Assembly (NCBI GenBank): GCA_964013405.1
Contig: CAXGWI010000024.1
Coordinates: 1-34,962, forward strand
DNA length: 34,962 bases
DNA from: an uncultured Myxococcales bacterium
Lineage (GTDB): Bacteria; Myxococcota; UBA4151
Direction of reading: 5' to 3'
Notes under the pieces: generated by a model
What the model was told of the DNA's origin: nothing
Database searches by the model: none
Seen by the model: the letters and a program-made list of their open reading frames with translations, nothing else
In this document: in pieces, positions 19,463 through 32,547 of the stretch
Layout: every line of letters starts with the position of its first letter
How positions within the stretch are numbered: position 1 is the stretch's first letter
Position numbers and translations under genes: made by a program

Positions 19463-20499
19463 GGTGAGCCGCTCAACTCGAACACAGATTGAACAAAGGT
19501 CTCGATGCCTTCAATCGGGGTATCGGGCACCAAGCCGTGCCCCAAGTTGAAGATGTGACCGGTCTGACCACCCACCGCCCGATGCATCCGCTGCACCCGA
19601 TCTCGAATATCAGCGGCAGGAGCAAACAAACCGATGGGATCTAAGTTTCCCTGGACGCACCGGGGTGGGTCCATGGCGCCCAAGAGCCCGGCAGCTCGCG
19701 CCAAGTCCACGCGCCAATCAAGGGCAAAGCCCCGAGCAGCACAGTCGAGACTTTGATCAAAGAGATGACCACCATTGCGGAGATACAAGAGGATCGGGCC
19801 ATCCTCACTCACCTCTTCAAGGATTCGCTCATTCACAGGCTGAGCCCAGCGAGCGTAATCTTCCGCCCCCAGTTCACCAGCCCAGGTATCGAACAACTGA
19901 ACCGCATCTGCGCCGCTCGCCAATTGGTAACGAAGGTGAGCAATTACCGCGTCAGCAAGACGGTTCAGAAGATCGGCTGCCGCTTCTGGTTGGCAACTAA
20001 GAAAAGGTTTAATCTTACTAAAACGACGGGTTCCGCCCCCCTCCACCATGTAACAGGCGAGGGTGAAGGGCGCGCCGGCAAAGCCAAGAAGGGCTTTTTC
20101 ATCCCCCAAGGCTTGCCGCAGCAAGTTAAGGGCACCGCCGACATAGGCGAGGTCCTGGGCAGGCTCCACGGGTCGAAGCTTGGTCACATCGGCTGCTGTG
20201 GCGATCACGGGATCGAGCCGTGGTCCCCCAGGCGGATAGTTAAGCCCCTGACCCATCGCCTCCGGGATGTTCAGAATATCGGAAAAGAGAATCGCCGCAT
20301 CCACATCGAAGCGACGCACCGGTTGCAACGTGACCTCGCAGGCCAACTCTGGAGTTTTCATCACCGTGAGGAAATCGTGTTCCTTACGCACCGCTCGATA
20401 CTCGGGAAGGGTGCGGCCAGCCTGGCGCATCATCCACACCGGTGGACGATCAACAGCCTGGCAATGCAGGGCCCGAAGCATGCGCTCTCTAGCATTCAT
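19459..20499 (-). CDS. hemE: Uroporphyrinogen decarboxylase
   Basis: PVWMMRQAGR, AAILFSDIL, GFAGAPFTLACYMVEG, QLFDTWAG, QGNLDP, IFNLGHG. Confidence 0.97.
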   Translation of the reverse strand: MNARERMLRALHCQAVDRPPVWMMRQAGRTLPEYRAVRKEHDFLTVMKTPELACEVTLQPVRRFDVDAAILFSDILNIPEAMGQGLNYPPGGPRLDPVIATAADVTKLRPVEPAQDLAYVGGALNLLRQALGDEKALLGFAGAPFTLACYMVEGGGTRRFSKIKPFLSCQPEAAADLLNRLADAVIAHLRYQLASGADAVQLFDTWAGELGAEDYARWAQPVNERILEEVSEDGPILLYLRNGGHLFDQSLDCAARGFALDWRVDLARAAGLLGAMDPPRCVQGNLDPIGLFAPAADIRDRVQRMHRAVGGQTGHIFNLGHGLVPDTPIEGIETFVQSVFELSGSP

Positions 20500-21538
20500 G
20501 ATGGGGACTCCAACCTTTCAGTTCCTGATAACAGATCGCTTCCAGGGCATCGATCCACCGAGGATCCGCGTTCAAGCAGGGCAACAGGAGAAAGTCCTGT
20601 CCACCTGCAGCCATGAATTCGTCCCTGCCCTCAATACCGAGTTCCTCAAGAGTTTCGAGGCAGTCCGTCGTAAAGCCAGGGCTTAAAACCGCGAGACGCT
20701 TCCCCTGATTTCCCAGCCGGTGAAATGCGTCGGCTGTACTCGGCTCCAACCAGGCCTGTCGGCCCAAACGACTCTGATAAGAAAGCGACCATTGCGCCCG
20801 GTCCAAACCACAAACCTCAGCGATGAGTTCGGCACTCCGTTCGGCCTCACCCCGATAGCAAGAGGACTCCTGCCGCTCAGCGTGCTGGCAGCGGGGTGCG
20901 GCCAGACAGTTTTGACTGCAATGACGACTCTTCGCCAGATGGGACAGCGGCATACTGTGAAAAGAGAAAAGAACATGATCGGGCTGAAAGGAGCGAAGTT
21001 CATCCTCGATCAACGATCGCCAGGCATCTAGGAACTCAGGTCGGTTGTAGAAGGGCGCCGCCACCCGCAAACTCGGAAAATCCCATTGCCGAATAAGCTC
21101 CTGCATCGCCTCAGCGGTGGTCGATGCGGTCGTCGCTGAACTATTTTGGGGAAAGAGGGGTACAGCAAGCAATCTGTCCACCTGGTGTTCTTGGAATGCA
21201 CGCACGCCCTCTTTGATACCAGGTTGCCCAAAGGCCATGCCCACTTGGACCACGAAAGAATCGCCAAGGCGCTTCTGCAAGCCCTCGCCCACCTCCAAGG
21301 TGTATGCCACCAATGGAGACCCCTTGTCGGTCCAGATTTTGGCGTAGGCTTTCGCCGAACGAAAGGACCGAAAGGGCACGATGATGAGATTCACCAGAAT
21401 CCAGCGCAGTGGTGCCGGTAGGTCGATCAGTCGAGGATCACCAAGAAAACGGCGCAGGTAGCGAGCAACCGACCACGCTGTTGGCCGATCAGGGCTACCC
21501 ACCTGCAAAAGCAAAATGCCGGTCTTAGACTGTTTCAT
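20489..21538 (-). CDS. hemH: Ferrochelatase with internal Cys-rich insertion
   Basis: GILLLQVGSP, YLRRFLGDPR, Y.KIW...GSPL, PLFPQ.S..T, LFSFHSMP, YQSRLG..WLEP, FTTDCLETLEE. Confidence 0.96.
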   Translation of the reverse strand: MKQSKTGILLLQVGSPDRPTAWSVARYLRRFLGDPRLIDLPAPLRWILVNLIIVPFRSFRSAKAYAKIWTDKGSPLVAYTLEVGEGLQKRLGDSFVVQVGMAFGQPGIKEGVRAFQEHQVDRLLAVPLFPQNSSATTASTTAEAMQELIRQWDFPSLRVAAPFYNRPEFLDAWRSLIEDELRSFQPDHVLFSFHSMPLSHLAKSRHCSQNCLAAPRCQHAERQESSCYRGEAERSAELIAEVCGLDRAQWSLSYQSRLGRQAWLEPSTADAFHRLGNQGKRLAVLSPGFTTDCLETLEELGIEGRDEFMAAGGQDFLLLPCLNADPRWIDALEAICYQELKGWSPHHEC

Positions 21539-21610: not shown

Positions 21611-21680
21611 CGGCCTGGGCTGGGTGGGCTTCACTTGATCCTGAGCTAAAGTTCAGGAAGAGCCAACGTGGAGATTGACC

Positions 21681-22766
21681 GTGGACAGTAAAACGTTCCG
21701 AACCGAGTACATGGTCTTTGGCTTTGCGCTTGTGACACTGGCCGCGCTCACAATGTGGTGGTCAACCGCCTTGGTCCAGTGGGTTGACGGTGGCTATGCA
21801 CGACAACTGCTTGAGTTGGAACACGAAGCCTTGAACCGAGTCGTGCGACAGGATCCGGGAGACTACGTGCTTCGCCCCCTTCCCCACCGAATGGGCTGCA
21901 GCCTTGCACCTGAAGCACAAGGGCAACTTTGTCCGCCCGAATCGGTCTTCAACGAACTGGAATCGTGGCGAGAGCGGCGCACCTTCATGGTTCAAGGCGA
22001 ACTGGGCCTCTTGATGATTCTTTTATGCATCGCCTTCTGGATGCTGTTTCGCCTCGTTCGCTCCGAGCGCCGCTTTGCCGAGGAGATGTCCTTCTTTCTA
22101 GGCCGTGTGACCCACGATATGAAGACGCCGCTGGCCGGGCTCAAGGCACTTCTTCAAAGCCTATACAAGGGGCGAGTCCCCGAAGAAGAAAGGCAACGAA
22201 TGTTGCTCTTAGGACTTGAGCAGGTGGCAAGAGAAGAGCGCCTTGTGTCCAATTTGCTCACAGCCCAACGCATGCGAGCGGGTGGTCAACGAAGGAACGA
22301 CCAACCGGTCGCCCTGGTTCCCTTGCTGGAGCGTCTGGTGTCGGAACGTAACCTCTTGGCCCACGGGGAGCGCGAGTACCGCTTAGAGTGCGCCGACAAC
22401 CTACGGGCTCGGGGCGACCGAGACGAAATACAGAGTATTCTTCATAACCTTCTCGACAATGCCCAGAAATGCGGTGCAACCCGAGTGCACATCAAGACCT
22501 CCCTATGTGGCGATCTCGTCCGGATCGACTGCCTTGATGATGGCGAAGGCTTTCCCCCGACGGAAGCGGATAATCTGTTCGATGCCTTTGTGCGCTCATC
22601 CACCGACTCCGGCGCATCCGGTGGTGGCGTTGGATTGGGTCTGTACTTGTGTCGCCGCCTCGCTCGGGAGATGGGGGGCGACGTGAAAGCGAGCAGTGAG
22701 GGGCTTGGGCAAGGCGCCTGCTTTTCCCTGCTCCTTCCCTTTGCCCAAGAGGAGCAGACCCCATGA
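21681..22766 (+). CDS. Membrane sensor histidine kinase (HisKA + HATPase)
   Basis: Two TM segments; H-box THDMKTPL, N-box NLLDNA, DDGEGF, LFDAF, GVGLGL. Start is GTG 21681 (GGAG upstream) or TTG 21675. Confidence 0.93.
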   Translation: MDSKTFRTEYMVFGFALVTLAALTMWWSTALVQWVDGGYARQLLELEHEALNRVVRQDPGDYVLRPLPHRMGCSLAPEAQGQLCPPESVFNELESWRERRTFMVQGELGLLMILLCIAFWMLFRLVRSERRFAEEMSFFLGRVTHDMKTPLAGLKALLQSLYKGRVPEEERQRMLLLGLEQVAREERLVSNLLTAQRMRAGGQRRNDQPVALVPLLERLVSERNLLAHGEREYRLECADNLRARGDRDEIQSILHNLLDNAQKCGATRVHIKTSLCGDLVRIDCLDDGEGFPPTEADNLFDAFVRSSTDSGASGGGVGLGLYLCRRLAREMGGDVKASSEGLGQGACFSLLLPFAQEEQTP

Positions 22767-23470
22767 CCACTCGTCGAATTCTCGTGGTCGAAGACGACCA
22801 ACTCACGGGCAGCATGATCCAGTTGAATCTCGAACATGAGGGTTATGAGGTCACCCTGATGACCCACGGTGAAGCGGCTCTCGAACGACTTGAGAGCGAC
22901 CAGTTCGATCTCCTTTTACTGGACCAAAATCTACCGGGACTCGGTGGCCAAAGCCTTCTGCACACGGCTCGAAAACGGGGGGTGACCACGCCAGCCATCA
23001 TGGTCACAGCCATCACCGAGACCCGCATCAAACTGGAGGCCTTTAAGCGAGGAGCGGACGACTACCTGACCAAGCCTTTCGATATGGCTGAGTTGAGTGC
23101 CCGGGTGGCAGCTCTGATTCGGCGTAGCCAGGCGGCTCGGGAGTTGCCCAGTTCCAAGCGCTTACGGATGGGTACTGTTTGGGTCGACCTCGAGGCCCGG
23201 TGGGTCGAGAGCGAGCAAGGAGAACGCACGGAACTCTCCCCCACTGATGCCAGCCTCTTGGAGCTGTTCGCTCGGGAGCCTGGCACCACTTTGAGCCGAG
23301 CCGATATCATCGAAGAGGTCTGGGGCATGGATGCCTTTCCTTCCGAACGAACGGTGGACAACTTCATCGTCCGACTGCGGCGACTGATCGAGCCAGAGCC
23401 CGCCGAGCCGGTCTACCTGCGCAGCGTCCGTGGCAAAGGCTACCGTTATCAGCCGGAGGGACATCCATGA
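22763..23470 (+). CDS. OmpR/PhoB-family response regulator
   Basis: ILVVEDD, LLLLDQNLPG, MVTA, GADDYLTKPF; winged helix RTVDNFIVRLRRLIE...SVRGKGY; ATGA overlap with the kinase. Confidence 0.95.
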   Translation: MTTRRILVVEDDQLTGSMIQLNLEHEGYEVTLMTHGEAALERLESDQFDLLLLDQNLPGLGGQSLLHTARKRGVTTPAIMVTAITETRIKLEAFKRGADDYLTKPFDMAELSARVAALIRRSQAARELPSSKRLRMGTVWVDLEARWVESEQGERTELSPTDASLLELFAREPGTTLSRADIIEEVWGMDAFPSERTVDNFIVRLRRLIEPEPAEPVYLRSVRGKGYRYQPEGHP

Positions 23471-24012
23471 GCCTCGTACGCGATCTTCTCACAGGCGATG
23501 GGCCCGTGAGCCGGCTCCTGCCAGGCCGGCAAAGCGGCCCGGCCCTCGCCATGAAGGCCTTTGGGCTCTTCGGTGTGCCCATGTTGGGCTGGATCAAACC
23601 GGAAGTCGTCGAACTCAACGACCACTCTTGCCGCCTGCGCATCCGCTTCCGGCGGCGAACGAGAAATCACGTGGGTAGCATGTACTTCGGGGTGCTGTGC
23701 GCTGGCGCCGACCTGGCGAGCGGCCTATTGGCCGTACGGCACGCCGCTAAAATCAACGAAGAGGTGAGCTTAATCTTTAAAGATGTCCGCGGTGACTTCC
23801 GGCAAAAGGTCATGGGGCATTGCTTCTTTGAGTGCCAGGATGGTGAGGCCATCGCCGCGGCGGTGAAACAAGCTGACGAAACCGGCGAACGAATCAACGT
23901 CCCAACACAGATCCTCGTGTGGCCTGAAGATGGCTCGCCGGAGGAACCAGCCGCCGTCTTCGAACTCACCCTCAGCTTAAAAGATCGTCAACGCTCAAAG
24001 GCCCCCCAATGA
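23467..24012 (+). CDS. Hotdog-fold protein (DUF4442/PaaI-like thioesterase)
   Basis: RRTRNHVGSMYFGVLCAGADLASG, SLIFKD...F; ATGA overlap with the regulator. Confidence 0.8.
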   Translation: MSLVRDLLTGDGPVSRLLPGRQSGPALAMKAFGLFGVPMLGWIKPEVVELNDHSCRLRIRFRRRTRNHVGSMYFGVLCAGADLASGLLAVRHAAKINEEVSLIFKDVRGDFRQKVMGHCFFECQDGEAIAAAVKQADETGERINVPTQILVWPEDGSPEEPAAVFELTLSLKDRQRSKAPQ

Positions 24013-25094
24013 GGGCCATCCTCCTTCTTTCGGCTCCCGTGCTGCTGCTCGCATGTGGCAAGGCTGTCGTTCGCCTCGAAGCCGGCCCGCCCCCAAGCCC
24101 CGATACCGGTCCCCGACAAGCCGGCGATGGGGGCCATAGCCGAGGGGATATGGCTGGTACCAACAGCGACGGGGGAGAAACTGCAAGGGCCGATGCCGGG
24201 GACGAGATCCCCCCAAACCCCTTTGGCCCGGTGGGGCCGGTGCGGCTCGAATCTGGCACTGTCGCTGGACGGGCCTATTTGGCGGCCGTGCCGACCAATG
24301 CCCACGGTCTCGCCTTCTACTTCCACGACAGCGGCAAGGACGAATCAGCGCTCCTGCGAGTGGAAGTGCAGGATCTCATCCAGCGCTTCAACCAACGTCT
24401 CGTCGCCGTTGTGGCCCTCCGTGCCAGTGGGGGTGACCCCCGACGCTGGGATGTGAACAACCTGTCGGCCAACGACAACCAGGATTGGCCTGCCCTGGTC
24501 GCGCTAAGAGATGCGTTGGTCGCCAGCACGGATCTGGGCCCCAATGGTCCGGTCTATGCCGTTGGTCAGGGTAATGGTGGCACCTTCGCGACCTTGTTCG
24601 CCTATTTGGCCCATGAAGCGGGGTGGACGGTTTCCGGCGCCATGATTCACGGCGCCCCCATCGCCGGTGGCTGGGTCACCGGAGCTTACAGCCCCCGGAG
24701 CACCTTTGTCCTGTCGGAAAACGATGAGGTGGTAAACGAAGCCCGATTACTCGATCAGCTACGTAGTCTTGAAGCTCGTGAGGTCCCCTACACGCTCCTT
24801 CGCTGCGAGGAGAAGTCACTCCACCGCTGGCGCTTTACCCGAATTCCGGGACTGGATCAGGAGACGAGCGACCTGGTCTTTTTAGAGCTCAAGGACTTGG
24901 GCATCATCAACTCAGAGGGTCAGCGCCTGGTTCCCATTCAAGAGGCCTGGGTCCGAGCCGCAAGGCATCCCTTCTGGCCCGATACGATCCGCCCCCACCT
25001 GCCGGCCATCGAGGATCAACTGCGGGTGGTGTGGGCGGCCCGGACCTTTTGCGGCAACCACCTCCCCGCAGAAATCCGATTCCTGCTGCCCTAG
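24009..25094 (+). CDS. Lipoprotein with alpha/beta-hydrolase-like fold (nucleophile Ser apparently absent)
   Basis: Lipobox LLLAC, low-complexity linker, FYFHDSG, VYAVGQGNGG elbow, SENDE; ATGA overlap with the upstream gene. Confidence 0.7.
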   Translation: MRAILLLSAPVLLLACGKAVVRLEAGPPPSPDTGPRQAGDGGHSRGDMAGTNSDGGETARADAGDEIPPNPFGPVGPVRLESGTVAGRAYLAAVPTNAHGLAFYFHDSGKDESALLRVEVQDLIQRFNQRLVAVVALRASGGDPRRWDVNNLSANDNQDWPALVALRDALVASTDLGPNGPVYAVGQGNGGTFATLFAYLAHEAGWTVSGAMIHGAPIAGGWVTGAYSPRSTFVLSENDEVVNEARLLDQLRSLEAREVPYTLLRCEEKSLHRWRFTRIPGLDQETSDLVFLELKDLGIINSEGQRLVPIQEAWVRAARHPFWPDTIRPHLPAIEDQLRVVWAARTFCGNHLPAEIRFLLP

Positions 25095-25175
25095 CTGGGA
25101 ATCCGATTATTCCTAAGCCCAATACCTTGTCATTTTTCGGCCTTAAGCTCATGACATTCCAAGTAAGGAAGTCAT

Positions 25176-27341
25176 ATGGCCCTCTTCGCTCATCTCATCA
25201 TCATCGCCGTGATGACTCTGGTATCGCTACCGTTTCTCACGCCGCTTTTGGGCATCCAAGAACAAGATATTCCGGGCCCTGTGTGGCTCTTGGTGATGAT
25301 CTCGGCGGTGGCCAATATTCTGGTGATGGGTTACCATTATTTGGTCCCCCCCCACCCTAAATTTCTGCTCACCGGCTGGCGCCGCCTGGTCCTACGACTG
25401 CACATCCTTTCAGGTACTGTTGAACTCGTAGCCGGCGTGGTCGCGATTCTGAATCCCGGTCATCGCGTTGCAGCCACCGTGATGGCCCTCAGTGCGCTCT
25501 GCGTCCATGTCCCATCGGCCCTGGCCCAAACGCCTATCGTCTTCGGTAGCCGAGCCATCATGCGCCCGGGTTATCTACTCTGTATCGGCCTCCACGCATT
25601 CTGCGCCGCCAGACTTCTCGTCTATCCCCAGTCCTCCTATTGGGTCGTGACAACCTTTCTCATCTTCAACGTCTATGTCTGGTGCCGGCTCTATTACTAT
25701 GTCTTCGACAAGTTTGAGCTCTTCTCGGGCTCCCGCTACACGGTCGCCATTTGCGCTGCGGGCCTCACCACGATCCCCGCAGTCCTTGGCTCCAGTAGCA
25801 TCCTGCTGCTCATCGCAGGCTGCTCGGTCTACATGGGCCTCTACAGCATGTTCTTCATTCGAAGCTCGCTGGACTATCAAGAGTTTGTCCGGGAACGGGC
25901 CCGCGATGCGTCGCCAATCGAGGGCTATATGAGCCTGGTCGAGAAACAGGACGAGGAGCAGTCGAAACACTCCGCTCGCAACTTCTTCGATAGCCTCTTG
26001 GAGCCGAGTTCGCAGCAGGTGACTGTCGATGCCCTCTATCAAAGCCTGGCTGGCTCTGGTTTGACCGTCGACGACCTACGCAGTGGTTTAGAGGCACGGT
26101 TTGGCGGCCATAGCCTGAGCTTCGATGCCTTCTATGACCAGGTCTGGAGTCTGCGAGAGATTCGGCGCCATGCCCTCGTGGTCGCGGGCGCGGAAAAAGC
26201 GAAGAGTGATCGGGACAAAGCGGAGTTTGTCTTCGGTCTACTCGACTTGGACCGGGACGGTTTTCTCGTCCAAAGCGATTTTGAACTCCTGACATCGGAG
26301 TGGGCCATGCCAGCCCCTGAAGCGGCCCGCCTCTTGGAGCATCTCGAGGTCACGAAAGGCCGGAAGATGGACTTTGACGGCTTCTTTCGCCGTCTCCGGC
26401 CGGTGTGGCGGTTTGTCTTCTATGATGTGGTGGACGCGAAACATGGCCGCCGGGAGGACATGCTTGTCCGGGCGGTGACTGCTCGCAGAGAAGCCAAGGC
26501 AACGAAATCGGTTCGTCGGGACCTGCGCCGAGAATTGGTGGGTCACATCGAATTCTTGCAGGGCGCGACCAGCGAGTTTCTCGATGAGTTTGCAGCCTCC
26601 TTGGTCGAGACCCGTTGGGAGGCAAATCAGATCGTCTTCTCCGAGTCGGAGCCTGGTGACTGCCTCTACATTGTCCGGCAGGGTCAACTGCGGGTGGACC
26701 GCAGCGGCGAGTTGCTCGGTCATGTCGCAATGGGCGACTGGGTCGGTGAAGGCGCATTGTTAGACGACAGCGTTCGCTCGGCATCCCTACGAACGACCGC
26801 GCCCTGCAGCCTGTTCGAAATGTCCAGAGCCTCATTTCGATTTCTTCTCGAAAAGCACCCCTCAGTGGAATCAACGCTCACACAGATTCACGAGGATCGA
26901 AACCTCGACGCGATGCACCATTCGCTCAAGCAGGGCCTCTTGGCTGATATCCCGCTGCTGGCCCAAGCGGAAAGCGCACCGCTCCAGGCCATCACCCAGG
27001 CGCTCGAGAGAGAAGTGGTCGAAGGTGAGGTTTTTGCAGAAGGCGCTCAAGCGGACCGTTTCTACTTGATCGGAGCCGGCCAGGTCCAAATCATCCACGG
27101 TGGTATCGTCATCGCTGAGTTGGCGACCGGCGGCTACTTTGGCGAGGGGGCGCTACTCGCCGACCTGCCCCGAACGGCCAGCGCCGTTGCCGTCGGCAAG
27201 GCCACGCTCTATAGCCTGGACAGGACCGCATTTGAACACATCCTCGCCCAATTCCCGGCCCTCGCCGCCAGCGTTCAAGCGGTGCACGAAAGTCGTCAAC
27301 AGGCCTTGCATCAGCCCTCCGGCTCAGGAGATCCGTCATGA
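25176..27341 (+). CDS. Polytopic membrane protein with EF-hand region and two cyclic-nucleotide-binding domains
   Basis: About 7-8 hydrophobic segments in aa 1-228; EF loop DLDRDGFLVQSD (aa 357-368); phosphate-binding cassettes GEGALLDDSVRSAS and FGEGALLADLPRTAS; AAGGAAG RBS. Confidence 0.88.
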   Translation: MALFAHLIIIAVMTLVSLPFLTPLLGIQEQDIPGPVWLLVMISAVANILVMGYHYLVPPHPKFLLTGWRRLVLRLHILSGTVELVAGVVAILNPGHRVAATVMALSALCVHVPSALAQTPIVFGSRAIMRPGYLLCIGLHAFCAARLLVYPQSSYWVVTTFLIFNVYVWCRLYYYVFDKFELFSGSRYTVAICAAGLTTIPAVLGSSSILLLIAGCSVYMGLYSMFFIRSSLDYQEFVRERARDASPIEGYMSLVEKQDEEQSKHSARNFFDSLLEPSSQQVTVDALYQSLAGSGLTVDDLRSGLEARFGGHSLSFDAFYDQVWSLREIRRHALVVAGAEKAKSDRDKAEFVFGLLDLDRDGFLVQSDFELLTSEWAMPAPEAARLLEHLEVTKGRKMDFDGFFRRLRPVWRFVFYDVVDAKHGRREDMLVRAVTARREAKATKSVRRDLRRELVGHIEFLQGATSEFLDEFAASLVETRWEANQIVFSESEPGDCLYIVRQGQLRVDRSGELLGHVAMGDWVGEGALLDDSVRSASLRTTAPCSLFEMSRASFRFLLEKHPSVESTLTQIHEDRNLDAMHHSLKQGLLADIPLLAQAESAPLQAITQALEREVVEGEVFAEGAQADRFYLIGAGQVQIIHGGIVIAELATGGYFGEGALLADLPRTASAVAVGKATLYSLDRTAFEHILAQFPALAASVQAVHESRQQALHQPSGSGDPS

Positions 27342-28945
27342 GTTCTAAAAATCCGACAAAAGTCCTCATTCTGGGGGGGGGCTATGTGGCGATCTATGCC
27401 GTCAAAGCGCTGAAACGGGCCATCCGTCGTGGCGAGGTGGACGTCACCGTTGTCGACAAGAACAACTACCACTGCTTTCACGGTTTGGTGCCCGAAATGC
27501 TGGTTGGGAAAATCCAAGCAGGACAAATCATTTCCCCGGCTCGCCGGATCTTTCAACCAGCCCGGTTTGTCCTGGCAGATATCGAGAAGGTGGATACGCA
27601 AACCAAGTCAGTGGCCGTTCGCCGAGGCCACGATGGCGAGATTGTCCACTTAGCCTATGACCACCTCATCGTCGGCCTTGGCTCCGTCGATAATCTGACC
27701 CGCTACCGGGGTATTGGCGAGCACACGCTGCGACTCAAAAGCTACTGGGATATCATCGGGGTCCGTAACCGAGTCCTCGCCATGCTGGAAATGGCTGAGT
27801 TGGAAGATGACCCGGAAGAGCGCAAGCGCTTGCTACACTTCGTCATCGCCGGCGGAAACTATGCCGGTGTCGAGGTGGCCGCAGAACTCGCCGCCTTTTT
27901 GAATGGCCTAGCCAAAAAGGAGTTTCGTCGTCTCCAGGGTGACGAGGTTCGGGTGACTCTGGTCCATGCCGGTGACCACGTGCTGCCGGAACTTGGGGAA
28001 CGCTTCCCAAAGCTTTCAGCGAAAGCAGCCCATTACCTTCAGTCCATCGGCGTGCACCTCAAGCTTGGGCTGCGCCTCGACGCGGCAACGCCTTTGGAGG
28101 CTATACTCAGTGATGGCTCACGGCTGCCCTCGCGCACCATCATCAGCTGCACCGGCACCGCCCAATCACCGGTACTCGCAACCCTTCCCTTCGATCGGGA
28201 CGCCCATGGAAGGTTGGTGGCCGACGCCAATGGCTGCGTAAACGTAGAGGCTCAGATCTGGACGGGGGGAGACTGCGGCGCCATACCCATGAAGAAGGGA
28301 GGTACTGCTCCCCCCCTCGCGCTCTACGCCATGCAAGCCGGAAAAACGATCGGCAAAAATATCCTCCGAAGCCTGCGCGGAAAACCCTTGAAACCCTACA
28401 GTTTTGGGGGCCTCGGTGACTGTTGCCAGTTGAGCACGGGCAAGGGCGTAGGGCAGATGATGGGGATTCCCGTGACCGGCTGGCTTTGCTGGCTGATCTG
28501 GCGTGCGTTCATGGTGGCCTATTTGCCCTCCTGGATGAAACGGGTCCGAACGGTGCTCGATTGGATGACAACCCCCTTCTTAGGCCGGGACATCATCGCC
28601 GTAACGGCGCCTTCAGAAATGGGTGTGCAGCAACAGCTCTTCGAGCCAGGGCAGTTCATCGTCAACGAGGGGGATGTGGGCAAAGCCATGTTCCTGATCC
28701 GTAGTGGGGAGGTGGAGGTTATTCGTCGAGGCGAGGACGGCACCGAGACCGCCATCGCTACCTTGGGCCCCGGGGAGCACTTCGGTGAGATCGCCGTGCT
28801 CAACAATGTTCGTCGCACGGCATCGGTACGGGCCCGGTCCGCCGTCGAGCTTCTGCGCATCGGCCAGGAGCAAGCAAACCTGCTGACGAGCACTTACCAG
28901 GGCTTCGGCGAGATTGCGGCCACGGCCGAGAGCCGGCTCAACTAG
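27338..28945 (+). CDS. Type II NADH dehydrogenase-like flavoprotein with C-terminal cyclic-nucleotide-binding domain
   Basis: VLILGGGY, YDHLIVGLGS, FVIAGGNYAGVEVAAEL, GGDC, membrane-anchor segment GWLCWLIWR; then FIVNEGDVG..MFLIRSGEV and FGEIAVLNNVRRTASV; ATGA overlap. Confidence 0.9.
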   Translation: MSSKNPTKVLILGGGYVAIYAVKALKRAIRRGEVDVTVVDKNNYHCFHGLVPEMLVGKIQAGQIISPARRIFQPARFVLADIEKVDTQTKSVAVRRGHDGEIVHLAYDHLIVGLGSVDNLTRYRGIGEHTLRLKSYWDIIGVRNRVLAMLEMAELEDDPEERKRLLHFVIAGGNYAGVEVAAELAAFLNGLAKKEFRRLQGDEVRVTLVHAGDHVLPELGERFPKLSAKAAHYLQSIGVHLKLGLRLDAATPLEAILSDGSRLPSRTIISCTGTAQSPVLATLPFDRDAHGRLVADANGCVNVEAQIWTGGDCGAIPMKKGGTAPPLALYAMQAGKTIGKNILRSLRGKPLKPYSFGGLGDCCQLSTGKGVGQMMGIPVTGWLCWLIWRAFMVAYLPSWMKRVRTVLDWMTTPFLGRDIIAVTAPSEMGVQQQLFEPGQFIVNEGDVGKAMFLIRSGEVEVIRRGEDGTETAIATLGPGEHFGEIAVLNNVRRTASVRARSAVELLRIGQEQANLLTSTYQGFGEIAATAESRLN

Positions 28946-29931
28946 GGGCTTATCTCGCGGGCGAGATCGAGGGCCGCATAGGTGAGAACCGCATCGGCAC
29001 CGGCCCGCTTAAAGGCGAGCATGCTCTCCATCATCACCGCATCGCCATCAAGCCAGCCCCGCTTGGCCGCGCCCATGAGCATGCTGTATTCACCACTGAC
29101 CTGGTAGGCGAAGGTCGGCATTTGGAAGCGCTCTTTCACTCGCCAAATGACGTCAAGATAAGGCATCCCGGGCTTCACCATGACCATGTCCGCTCCCTCG
29201 TCGATGTCGAGGGCGACCTCTCGCAGCGCTTCATCCCCATTGGCCGGGTCCTGTTGGTAGGTCCGCTTATCAGCGACACCAAGGGCTGCTTTGGAGCCCA
29301 CCGCGTCCCGAAAGGGACCGTAAAATGCGCTGGCGTACTTTGCGGCATAGGCGAGGATCTGGACCTCCTGGCGCCCCTGACTGTCTAAATGCTTGCGAAT
29401 CGCGCCAACCCGTCCATCCATCATATCGCTGGGCGCGATGATGTCACAGCCCGCACTCGCCTGGACAATACTCTGGGCACATAGCGCTTCGATAGTGGCC
29501 TCGTTGAGGACCTCACCCCGTCGAACGATGCCGTCCTGACCGTGACTGGTGAATGGGTCGAGGGCCACATCGCAAATCACGCCGAGGTCTGGCACCGCTT
29601 CTTTGACCGCGTTCACGGCTCGACAGATGAGGTTGTCCGGACTGGTCGCTAGGCTGCCATCCTCGTCTTTCAATTCAGGCTCAATGACCGGGAAGATCGC
29701 AATGGCCGGAATACCAAGGTCTCGAGCTTCTTTGGCCGCCTCAACCAAGAGGTCGATGGACTTCCGCTGGACCCCGGGCATGGAGGACACGGGCTCATAG
29801 CGCTTGGTCCCCTCGATCACGAAGCAGGGCCAGATCAGATCATCCACGCTTAGCCGGTGTTCCCGAACCAGACGCCTCGACCAATCTGTCTGACGGTTCC
29901 GGCGCATACGAGTCTGGGGATAGTAGGGCAC
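28942..29931 (-). CDS. hemB: Porphobilinogen synthase (ALA dehydratase), Asp-rich non-zinc type
   Basis: RMRRNR, DVALDPFTSHGQDG, APSDMMDGR, AKYASAFYGPFRDA, MVKPGMPYLD, AYQVSGEY. Confidence 0.97.
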   Translation of the reverse strand: MPYYPQTRMRRNRQTDWSRRLVREHRLSVDDLIWPCFVIEGTKRYEPVSSMPGVQRKSIDLLVEAAKEARDLGIPAIAIFPVIEPELKDEDGSLATSPDNLICRAVNAVKEAVPDLGVICDVALDPFTSHGQDGIVRRGEVLNEATIEALCAQSIVQASAGCDIIAPSDMMDGRVGAIRKHLDSQGRQEVQILAYAAKYASAFYGPFRDAVGSKAALGVADKRTYQQDPANGDEALREVALDIDEGADMVMVKPGMPYLDVIWRVKERFQMPTFAYQVSGEYSMLMGAAKRGWLDGDAVMMESMLAFKRAGADAVLTYAALDLAREISP

Positions 29932-29990: not shown

Positions 29991-31199
29991 TCAACGCAGC
30001 CGAAGAGCCTCCAGCCGCTTCTCGATTTGGGCCGGGGAGAGCACCCCCTTAAACACATAAAGGGCCGCTGGAAGCCCCTCACCCAAGACCGCTTCGCTGA
30101 CCCGGAGCCGCTGGGAGCAGCAGAACAAAATCTTCTCCTCCATGCCGGCTTCTACCCATTCGACACGCCGCCAGACCGCGGCCCGACTCCAAAAGCCCAG
30201 GAGTTCAATATGCACGTGCTCGCCGGTGGGTTCGTGGGTTGCCAGTAGGTCGGGAACACAGGTGCCGAGACCGGGCAGGTCCAAGAGTGCCTGGCTCGGT
30301 GCCAGACTCCAATCGCTGTTGCGTTTGCCGAACTGCTGCAAAAGTTTGTTCACCTCGGGGGCCGCCTCATCCCTTCCGGCGCCATCGGCGCACCCGGGGC
30401 TCGTGAGGGAAAAACTGAGCGGGGCTTTGTCCTTGCCCCAAAGCAAGCTGGCTCGAAGTTCGAAGGGGCCACAGCGCTCAAGAGCCGGCAGCAGTTGGGC
30501 GAGTTGCAAGCCGTACTTCGTCACGCTGCTAAAGAGGCTGAGAGGACCATCGATGCTCAGGTGATACCCAGCCCCTTCCGGGCGCAGTTCGTAGAGTAAG
30601 CGCAGAAACTTAAGCCGGTGAAAGAGGCGGCGGGCGGCAGCCGGATGGCGGGGAAACAAGTCCACCTCAACGGCGGTCGCTTTCAAGAGCACCGCTTGGC
30701 AAGAGGACCGCTTATAGTCCGCAACCAACTGTTCCGGGCTGGGTTGGGCGAAGCGACTCAGTCGTTGGGCTCCCTTCAAGTCCGCGTAGAGGCGACGGTC
30801 GACTTCCGCCGCCGGCAACCCGAAGACCTGACCTGCTTCACGGAGGACCGCCTCCCGATCGAACTGCTCCCCGTCAGGTAGTGCTCGCCGTCTCGTCGTA
30901 GCCAGCGAAAACACCAGGGACCGAACCTCGGCGGGCTCCGCACCCTCGAGGGTTTCGAATTCGCAGTCATCGAGCAGAAGTTTTTGCAAGCCCTCAAGCA
31001 GGCGCTTCTCGCTGGCTTTGTGATCCACCGCCTTCCATTGCTCGAGGAGTTGCGTCCTCGGCGCACCGCGGCTGCGGGCGAGGATTCCGATGAGTTCGGT
31101 CGCTAAAGCTTCTGCTCGCCGGGCCTTGGCCCCCTCGAGCTTGATGATGTGCAGATGGCCACTGCGCCGCTGCACACGGACCAAGTCAGCGGTAAGCAC
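29991..31199 (-). CDS. DUF790 (Bax1-like) endonuclease family protein
   Basis: MLTADL start (GTG 31199, GGAGG upstream), LYADL, IDGPLSLF...KYGLQLA..LPAL, VPD...IELLGFW nuclease-like motif; follows the XPB-like helicase. Confidence 0.85.
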   Translation of the reverse strand: MLTADLVRVQRRSGHLHIIKLEGAKARRAEALATELIGILARSRGAPRTQLLEQWKAVDHKASEKRLLEGLQKLLLDDCEFETLEGAEPAEVRSLVFSLATTRRRALPDGEQFDREAVLREAGQVFGLPAAEVDRRLYADLKGAQRLSRFAQPSPEQLVADYKRSSCQAVLLKATAVEVDLFPRHPAAARRLFHRLKFLRLLYELRPEGAGYHLSIDGPLSLFSSVTKYGLQLAQLLPALERCGPFELRASLLWGKDKAPLSFSLTSPGCADGAGRDEAAPEVNKLLQQFGKRNSDWSLAPSQALLDLPGLGTCVPDLLATHEPTGEHVHIELLGFWSRAAVWRRVEWVEAGMEEKILFCCSQRLRVSEAVLGEGLPAALYVFKGVLSPAQIEKRLEALRLR

Positions 31200-32547
31200 G
31201 GTGCCTCCGCCGACGTTCGCTGGTGCGGGCCTCGCCGGTGTTGCCGGCCACCAGTTCGTAGAGCACAGCCCGTTTCTCGCCATCGGGCCGCAAGATCCGC
31301 CCTAAGCGCTGCACGTGCTCCCGGACACTGCCACTACCGGATACCACGATCGCGACGCGGGCTGCGGGGACATCGACCCCTTCGTTGAGCACCCGACTGG
31401 TGGCAAGGATCCCCAAGTCCCCCTGACGAAAGCGGTCGAGAAGATCACTGCGCTCGGCGACCTTGGTTTGGTGGGTGATGACCGGAACGAGGAAGCGCTC
31501 CGAGATGCGGTGGGCCGTGGCGTTGTCCTGGGTGAAGATGAGCATTTGGTCACGGCGGTGGCGGTGCAGCAAGTCATCGACCACTTCCAATTTGCTGGGT
31601 GCGGCGAAGGCCAACCTGCGTTGATCTTGGTAGCCCGCCATGGCCTCCCGCCCCGCTTCACTGCGGGCCGAGCGCATGATGAACTCACTCCAGCCCTTGC
31701 CGCTGGACATCCGAATGCCCTGCTGTCGTAGGAACCCCGTATAGAGGGCCCTTGAAGCGTCGTAGGCGGCTCGCTCCTCTGGGCTGAGTTCGACCGTGAT
31801 CCGCTCCACGTCATAGTCGGCGAGATAAGCCCCAGCCAACTGGTCCACGTGCTTGGCGTAACAGATAGGACCCACCAGGTCATCGAGGAGTTGGTCCCTT
31901 CCATCATCCCGCTCGGGGGTGGCCGTTAGGCCCAAACGAAATGGAGCGAGGGCACTCTGGGCTGCCAAGGCATAGGAAGCGCCCGGTAGGTGATGCACCT
32001 CATCAAAGAGGATGAGACCGAAGCGATTGCCCAAATGGTCCATGTGCAAATAGGCCGAATCGTAGGTCGTCACAGTGATCGGCTCGACCTGATGGGAGCC
32101 CCCACCCACCAGGCCGATGGGCTGCTTAAAATGGAGCCGGAGCCGATCGGCCCATTGGCGCATCAAATCGAGGGTCGGCACCACGATCAGACTATGGCGG
32201 TTCTTGGCGTGGATCGCTTCCATACCGACCAGGGTCTTGCCAGCTCCGGTGGGCAGGACGACCAAACCTTGGGAGCCTTGCGCCTCCCACCCTTGCAATG
32301 CCTCGCTTTGATAACTGCGAAGGGTCCTGCGAACCTGTAAGCCATGGGGCAACTCACCATAGGCTTTCGCACGATCCTCGTAGGGGGCATCACCCCGATG
32401 AAGCGCCGTGAGAATGGCGGCGTAGCGCCGGGCCGGTGCCCGTAAACAGCGGGCCCTTGGGTCTGGGACGAAGCCGAGTTGGGCAGCCTGGGGTAGATCT
32501 CCCCCCCTCAACTCAAGGGTGCCGGCATGAAAGGTTAAGGTGAGCAT
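31186..32547 (-). CDS. SF2 DEAD/DEAH helicase, XPB/Rad25-like
   Basis: LRSYQ, LPTGAGKT, VVPT, TTYDS, DEVHH, LTAT, VLNEGVD, QRLGRILR, LYELV. Confidence 0.93.
   Translation of the reverse strand: MLTLTFHAGTLELRGGDLPQAAQLGFVPDPRARCLRAPARRYAAILTALHRGDAPYEDRAKAYGELPHGLQVRRTLRSYQSEALQGWEAQGSQGLVVLPTGAGKTLVGMEAIHAKNRHSLIVVPTLDLMRQWADRLRLHFKQPIGLVGGGSHQVEPITVTTYDSAYLHMDHLGNRFGLILFDEVHHLPGASYALAAQSALAPFRLGLTATPERDDGRDQLLDDLVGPICYAKHVDQLAGAYLADYDVERITVELSPEERAAYDASRALYTGFLRQQGIRMSSGKGWSEFIMRSARSEAGREAMAGYQDQRRLAFAAPSKLEVVDDLLHRHRRDQMLIFTQDNATAHRISERFLVPVITHQTKVAERSDLLDRFRQGDLGILATSRVLNEGVDVPAARVAIVVSGSGSVREHVQRLGRILRPDGEKRAVLYELVAGNTGEARTSERRRRHRAYR

Follow-up and report, generated by a model that had tools for sequence, protein, structure and literature searches.

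In a 34,962-nucleotide stretch of DNA from an uncultured Myxococcales bacterium (contig CAXGWI010000024.1, positions 1 to 34,962, assembly GCA_964013405.1; hereafter, the window), two adjacent genes, here called A and B, encode a membrane protein with an EF-hand region and two cyclic nucleotide monophosphate (cNMP)-binding domains, and a flavoprotein of the NDH-2 (type II NADH dehydrogenase) fold with a third cNMP domain. The existence of A-B as a real, conserved module is well supported; its chemistry is what we infer. The reading that we favor, at a probability of about 0.45, is that A-B may be a second-messenger-controlled redox module on the cytoplasmic membrane face, with A as the core enzyme and B as its optional, dedicated, cNMP-gated flavin reductase serving the cofactor site of A. 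What appears to be new is the A family and the A-B pair, and B alone is an altered form of a known fold.

Both open reading frames were verified, and each gene is single-copy in the studied genome. They are joined by an ATGA overlap and preceded by a gap of their own, as the initial annotation had noted (Table 1). Among 33 genome loci with A, B lies directly downstream in 13 and is fused to A in one; in 18 the flanks examined show no B, and at the remaining locus the contig breaks off within A. The paired loci come from Myxococcota and Verrucomicrobiota records, with gaps of -4 to +33 nucleotides and the same -4 overlap in 7 of the 13, several of the Opitutaceae loci being near-identical. The fusion (L030, a Chloroflexota record) is one 937-codon frame comprising a partial B, a cNMP domain, a linker, the membrane domain and EF-hands; its A part falls outside the cNMP-bearing A clade, and its B part branches as the sister of the A-linked B sequences (SH-like approximate likelihood ratio test, SH-aLRT, 89). 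In the phylum of the studied genome (301 genomes), the 5 genomes with A are also the 5 with the B subfamily, the two genes being adjacent, and in the phylum of genome G042 (401 genomes) they occur, again adjacent, in the same 3; these counts share a collection with the 33 loci and are not additional loci. Fifteen weak matches from the 301-genome search (E about 1e-3 to 1e-4) had internal stops and were dropped as noise.

A quick tree of B, of which the ingroup and the L047/L052 outgroup are used, placed the A-linked B sequences in one clade (SH-aLRT 98); three other outgroup rows (L042, L043, and L045) had been translated from the wrong strand and are disregarded. We also profiled the metagenome relatives of B (the best 79 of 188). 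Eleven of these were at least 57% identical, and six have the A membrane domain upstream, three have the C-terminal part of A, and two have fewer than 140 bases of upstream sequence, i.e., A is upstream in 9/9 informative metagenome loci of the A-linked clade. Paired A proteins lie on both sides of their deepest split, and the A and B distances co-vary across 14 pairs (rho 0.87, 0/5000 permutations). The two genes form a conserved, co-inherited unit with one natural fusion, in support of the initial annotation.

The membrane domain of A was modeled by AlphaFold2 as eight helices (residues 1-230; predicted local distance difference test, pLDDT, 93.6), within a full-length model of pLDDT 92.6 and predicted template modeling score 0.84. 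Its earlier description as His-rich holds, with His54, 60, 76, 111, and 140 invariant among 66 close homologues. The full set of conserved residues is H54, H60-P61-K62, R69, H76, G80, E83, H111, G124, Y133, H140, Y167, W169, R171, and Y188. In 125 distant family members, counted where aligned, H76 (115/115), K62 (112/112), and R171 (117/117) never vary, followed by H111 (110/119), H60 (105/112), E83 (103/116), R69 (96/113), and H54 (91/111), and position 140 is His in 64/119 and Lys in 42/119. The conserved His are distributed one each on helices 2, 3, 4, and 5, plus one in a loop. Lys and Arg are abundant in loops 2-3, 4-5, and 6-7 and in the C-tail and scarce in the remaining loops, which by the positive-inside rule assigns a cytoplasmic position to the His/Lys/Arg cluster as well as to the EF-hands and cNMP domains; the conserved residues are accordingly predicted to sit on the cytoplasmic side. 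Covariation analysis (weak, effective depth 172) paired L75 with V110, so that H76 and H111 are likely adjacent, and Lys140 co-occurs with His at 164/165 in 32/42 cases versus 25/162 for His140. Together we infer that A has one cytoplasm-facing cofactor or catalytic site and a buried polar network.

No Pfam, NCBIfam or PADLOC model covers this domain. Foldseek against PDB returned nothing at E <= 0.001, a wide VIA search returned nothing at Z >= 8 (best Z 7.2, root-mean-square deviation 3.4 over 114 residues, a soluble helical bundle), and a second VIA search peaked at Z 6.4 with cytochrome oxidase subunit III-type bundles; these three results show neither novelty nor difference of fold. Cytochrome b561, heme A synthase, CREST/PAQR, PAP2, and membrane desaturases gave no Pfam or NCBIfam match and are not among the fold matches listed, and neither is the membrane fold of NOX and ferric reductases. 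The ESM Atlas held no usable match for A (P0001) or P0084, and PDB sequence searches matched only cNMP and calmodulin-like parts. A single structural match to the membrane domain reached significance, a viral protein of 530 residues (BFVD G8DFK9; E 2.4e-4, query TM-score 0.63, 18% identity).

For the membrane domain, a word-based search recovered 88 homologous proteins, and an exhaustive search gave 261 clusters at 50% identity (150 of them listed). Their hosts include cyanobacteria, actinobacteria, Nitrospirota, rotifers, and marine protist transcripts, and the closest labeled locus (L003, Myxococcales) is 88% identical over the domain. Distant members mostly consist of the membrane domain and EF-hands alone, cNMP domains being present in 9/84 scanned and flavoprotein domains in 0/84. 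Proteins with cNMP domains group as a single clade of the A tree, and copies lacking B are scattered through it. The domain represents a conserved family that has neither a name nor a profile nor a solved relative. It is found across bacteria and microbial eukaryotes and is almost always linked to EF-hands, and the bacterial pairing with a flavoenzyme provides the first testable hint of its function. Three probably eukaryotic members (P0175, P0128, and P0166) have a duplicated membrane and EF-hand unit (1044 residues) or additional membrane segments.

The sensor domains differ in how well they are preserved. The two cNMP domains of A were detected by Pfam (E 5.7e-34), and the phosphate-binding cassette G-E...R-[ST]-A is kept in all three cNMP domains of the pair, as the initial annotation had recognized; all three conform to the CAP/PKA type, and ligand binding is predicted from sequence. 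The EF-hand region was also correctly recognized at the level of the family, where EF-hand_7 matches 69/94 members and the loops are canonical in 86/124 and 116/129 at two positions. It is mostly decayed in the studied A, in which Pfam found no EF-hand and the strict PROSITE-like count is 0; of its two loops, 357-368 conforms to a relaxed EF pattern and 275-286 is degenerate. Given that only loop 357-368 is retained, Ca2+ control of this copy is doubtful. The studied genome encodes 22 class III cyclase domains, none of them in the window, and none was found beside any A-B locus, other cyclase classes not having been searched. Three related B-less loci have a membrane-anchored class III cyclase divergent from A (L018:221-1756, L021:101-1609, and L035:6535-7926 (minus)), which supports a real cNMP input to A.

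Pfam assigned B to Pyr_redox_2 (E 2.3e-26) and cNMP (E 5.1e-23) families. Its closest solved relatives are NDH-2s (E 3e-38 to PDB 9mqy), and it was the sole match in the studied genome to a canonical NDH-2 query. With complex I NuoD also present, the genome does not need B as its main point of NADH entry. Every A-linked B copy has His210 where the NADH-selecting Glu would be, which we take as a hint of NADPH preference. The cNMP cassette is intact in 19/19 A-linked B rows. We compared B and its subfamily (71 aligned proteins) with the NDH-2 motif set of Marreiros 2017 (PMC5299459, in the part available). The FAD (flavin adenine dinucleotide) motif is present (G13-G-G15-Y-V-A18), as are the GD motif (Asp312 in 71/71) and the C-terminal membrane-interaction region, which aligns with the 9mqy helices (Gly376 in 67/71). 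Glu179, Gly172, Gly177, and Gly273 are invariant. The GxGxxGxE motif is changed, with Asn174 at the second Gly in 71/71 and Glu179 kept; this count is partly circular for the metagenome rows, as the search pattern contained Asn, and Asn174 also holds in rows obtained through A or by homology. At the WxxG site, whose Trp is 99% conserved in NDH-2 according to the same source, the subfamily has Ser (32) or Thr (39) and never Trp (0/71). None of the quinone motifs AQxAxQ, AQxAxR, and APxAxQ is present, position 329 being Leu, Ile, His or Thr (Gln/Pro in 0/71), and the C-terminal cNMP domain departs from the rule that NDH-2 has no other fused domain.

B thus appears to be an NDH-2 offshoot that the standard family criteria would discard, and its description as an FAD/NAD(P)H dehydrogenase stands for the fold and fails for the canonical NAD(P)H-site and quinone-site motifs. 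The NDH-2-cNMP fusion named in the initial annotation is indeed present in B; fusions with canonical motifs (34-38% identity) also exist unlinked to A, so this architecture is not unique to A-B.

The remaining 68 metagenome relatives of B have no A membrane domain in the flanks examined. An MPAB/Lcp domain is found upstream in 51 (fused in 6), patatin, aldehyde dehydrogenase, DUF374, RoxA-like or OYE genes in 13, and none of these in 4. In these 51 loci (L079-L144; e.g., L106:4715-8961) the MPAB/Lcp domain, a B-subfamily flavoprotein with a decayed cNMP cassette and a conserved 450-aa gene form a three-gene block. The 450-aa protein has no Pfam match, and its N-terminus presumably resembles nitroreductase. 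The MPAB/Lcp family is reported to carry heme b (PMC12724181, in the part available). Eleven other loci (L074, L075, L076, L127, L128, L132-L134, L139, L140, and L142) have B-subfamily genes amid separately cNMP-tagged aldehyde dehydrogenase and patatin, in clusters also holding DUF374, RoxA-like cytochrome c or OYE genes, and in L074 and L128 ApbA is in frame with the B subfamily. Cyanobacteria encode fusions of the B subfamily with DevB/HlyD adaptors (P0090-P0093, 970-980 aa). The B subfamily, as an NDH-2 offshoot, combines changed nucleotide and quinone sites with a cNMP domain and with partners that can be exchanged (A, heme-b oxygenases, and lipid enzymes). A hydrophobic gene of 122-128 aa without Pfam match lies directly 3' of B at L013:4202-4588, L014, L015, L017, L023, L069-L072, and L078; it accompanies most Opitutaceae-type pairs and is absent from the studied genome. 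The studied genome has an MPAB/Lcp homologue (G000:C23:16146-17174, minus; 32% to the L106 protein) unlinked to B.

Based on these features, A would be an eight-helix membrane enzyme whose cytoplasmic His54, His60, His76, and His111, with Lys62, Arg69, and Arg171, may hold one metal ion or one heme, and the same site may also take an anionic, probably lipid, substrate. Ca2+ would switch A via the EF-hands, putatively the ancestral state and weakened in the studied genome, and in one bacterial clade cyclic AMP (cAMP) or cyclic GMP (cGMP) would also switch it via the added cNMP domains. B, on the same membrane face, would move hydride from NAD(P)H to FAD and hand electrons to the A site, either directly or by way of a lipid-soluble carrier, and its own cNMP domain would control this. 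The electrons would remain on the inner side, and there is no indication of a trans-membrane path. The upstream slot shared with heme-b MPAB/Lcp oxygenases, and the altered acceptor site of B, point to B as a reductase for the A site. A broader formulation, which we regard as possible and on balance unlikely, is that A represents a new fold and a family of Ca2+-switched membrane metalloenzymes of bacteria, protists, and rotifers, one bacterial branch of which added cNMP sensors and recruited a dedicated reductase derived from NDH-2, with cNMP gating and a rebuilt nucleotide site, resulting in a two-messenger redox switch independent of NOX.

Several observations weigh against the reductase reading. 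A mostly occurs without B, as the B subfamily is absent from 17/20 genomes searched and B-less copies are scattered over the A tree; A is therefore not an obligate half of a split enzyme, contrary to the initial annotation, and with the pairing counts this indicates that the A-linked B clade depends on A and not A on B. The protist and rotifer relatives have the membrane domain and EF-hands only, and none of the fold matches backs redox chemistry in A. Only one record holds the fusion, with no further one among 7995 scored candidates or 150 relatives of genome G056, and the weight of this fusion is reduced by the fusions of the B subfamily to DevB, MPAB, and ApbA. Linkage by itself would lead one to expect distances that co-vary, and some of the paired loci hardly differ from one another. 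Finally, with the loss of Gly174 and Trp270, B may not use NAD(P)H.

The best surviving alternative, to which we give a lesser but real chance, is that A, gated by Ca2+ and cNMP, is a membrane protein without a redox function (a hydrolase or transferase of lipid phosphates, a transporter or a channel) and B an independent cNMP-gated dehydrogenase, the operon grouping two effectors of one messenger. This would fit the frequent occurrence of A alone, the cyclases divergent from A in the B-less loci, and the sister B clades in operons of separately cNMP-tagged aldehyde dehydrogenase and patatin. The invariant K62-x6-R69, H76, H111, and R171 are residue types of phosphate-handling sites and may resemble a PAP2 site; the buried N47/E83/H140/N165 network could serve a solute or proton path. 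However, the A-linked B clade is never without A where the flank is informative, the pairing holds across the deepest split of the paired A proteins and extends to a fusion, and no channel, transporter or phosphatase fold is among the fold matches listed.

It is less probable that B no longer uses NAD(P)H and instead oxidizes a lipid or small molecule that A produces or handles, passing electrons to the quinone pool in a two-step pathway. Asn174 and the lack of Trp at position 270, each in 71/71, would be explained in this way, and the sister-clade neighbors are enzymes of lipid and isoprenoid oxidation. But Glu179, Gly172, Gly177, and Gly273 are invariant, Cys at the Trp position also occurs in NDH-2-cNMP relatives with intact GxGxxGxE, and the Asn174 invariance is partly circular, as noted. 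B also lacks Cys at the catalytic positions of SQR. Precedent for the fold without NADH binding does exist in SQR and FCSD (PMC5299459, same part).

The initial annotation had likened the pair to NOX5, as a split conduit. In such a conduit two hemes in A would carry electrons supplied by B through the membrane and deliver them to O2 or Fe3+. The four to five conserved His on helices 2-5, the EF-hands, and the flavoenzyme partner are consistent with this, but the 25 families listed (of 83) for 94 A members at E <= 2 do not include Ferric_reduct (the remaining families match at most one member), and B has a glutathione-reductase-type fold, unlike the FNR-type flavin domain of NOX. We consider this reading very improbable, since the hemes of NOX and ferric reductase domains are held by one pair of His on TM3 and another on TM5, spaced 13-14 residues (PMC3591440, in the part available), whereas A has a single conserved His on each of different helices, clustered on the predicted cytoplasmic side and none of them close to the outer face, and position 140 often has Lys in place of His.

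A-B was also compared with known systems. Canonical NDH-2 and B share two dinucleotide-binding domains, the FAD and GD motifs, the catalytic Glu, and C-terminal membrane helices; GxGxxG, WxxG, and AQxAxQ of the former correspond to GxNxxG, S/T-C-T-G, and A-[LIH]-x-A in B, which adds the cNMP domain and a fixed membrane partner gene. The EF-hand NDH-2s of plants and fungi (NDB type and the Neurospora external NADPH dehydrogenase) likewise tie a Ca2+-sensing module to NDH-2, but their EF-hand is inserted within the enzyme after the GD motif (PMC5299459, same part), whereas the EF-hands of A-B are on the separate membrane protein and the enzyme has a cNMP domain. NOX5/RBOH and the ferric reductase domain superfamily share EF-hands, a His-bearing membrane domain, and a flavin dehydrogenase with A-B, and differ in having no sequence match, another His pattern, 6 helices rather than 8, another flavoenzyme fold, no cNMP control, and not being split into two genes. 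The MPAB/Lcp clusters share the B subfamily and the directly upstream, sometimes fused, slot; unlike in A-B, the partner there is a heme oxygenase domain of known family and the cNMP cassette of B is decayed. CNG/SthK channels, PKA/PKG regulatory domains, and Pycsar effectors have only cNMP-binding domains in common with A-B, which lacks a pore, kinase or TIR domain and has no class III cyclase beside it. A-B does not qualify as Pycsar or CBASS, as the PADLOC matches span the cNMP stretches alone and the cyclase search, limited to class III, was negative at the locus.

In agreement with the initial claim that no characterized system has such an architecture, our literature searches, with most subscription papers outside their reach, found no description of the A-B pair, the A membrane family or NDH-2-cNMP fusions; the 2016 NDH-2 family survey, which could mention fusions, was outside the search. 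The words cyclic, cNMP, EF-hand, and fusion do not occur in the part available of a recent preprint (bioRxiv 10.1101/2025.10.14.682086). Nor did the literature searched yield a case in which cAMP or cGMP exerts direct allosteric control over a membrane dehydrogenase.

Table 1 Features of the A-B locus (positions in the window)
Feature	Position	Strand	Details
Intergenic gap 5' of gene A	25095..25175	+	81 bp
Gene A (P0001)	25176..27341	+	721 aa; membrane domain, EF-hand region, and two cNMP domains
A, unnamed membrane domain	25176..25865	+	aa 1-230; 8 predicted helices
A, EF-hand region	25938..26444	+	aa 255-423
A, EF loop 357-368	26244-26279	+	sole loop with EF-type ligands in the studied copy
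A, cNMP-binding domain 1	26613..26858	+	aa 480-561; cassette G524-S537 with R534
A, cNMP-binding domain 2	27006..27260	+	about aa 611-695; cassette G656-S669 with R666
ATGA overlap, A stop and B start	27338..27341	+	from sequence
Gene B (P0002)	27338..28945	+	535 aa; NDH-2-fold flavoprotein and cNMP domain
B, altered second dinucleotide motif	27851..27874	+	aa 172-179, G-G-N-Y-A-G-V-E; Asn174 for Gly, catalytic Glu179 retained
B, S270-C-T-G273 at WxxG site	28145..28156	+	motif comparison
B, A328-L-Y-A-M-Q333 at AQxAxQ quinone site	28319..28336	+	motif comparison
B, predicted C-terminal membrane-attachment region (NDH-2 fold)	28466..28585	+	about aa 377-416; weak NDH2_C, E 8e-4; aligns with PDB 9mqy C-terminal helices
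B, cNMP-binding domain	28637..28876	+	aa 434-513; cassette G483-S496 with R493

The pair is flanked by hemH (20489-21538, minus) and hemB (28942-29931, minus, convergent with B), as first described, but four unrelated genes intervene between hemH and A (a histidine kinase, a response regulator, a DUF4442 gene, and a 361-aa open reading frame), and the hem context is incidental beyond the closest relatives. Among 112 loci, hem genes were confined to the two closest relatives (hemB in L003 and L066) and one MPAB locus (L135). In genome G004 hemH is beside hemB with no A or B nearby, so the 21675-25094 block appears to interrupt a heme cluster here. A heme-pathway link of A-B was rejected on these grounds. 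The block, whose 361-aa frame has no family match, is co-oriented with A and B, and its order is kept only in L003 and L066.

GC content and GC at third codon positions of A and B match those of the flanking genes, thus there is no sign of recent transfer, and no match was found in viral contigs, plasmids or phages. Promoter and terminator scans around the pair were at chance level, the promoter scan giving only minus-strand chance sites. The metatranscriptome signal was one 312-nucleotide contig within B (depth 2.9, one sample), with A and the A-B junction uncovered. Further downstream in the window (29991-32547, minus), a DUF790/Bax1-like nuclease gene adjoins that of an XPB-type helicase, a pair best known from archaea.

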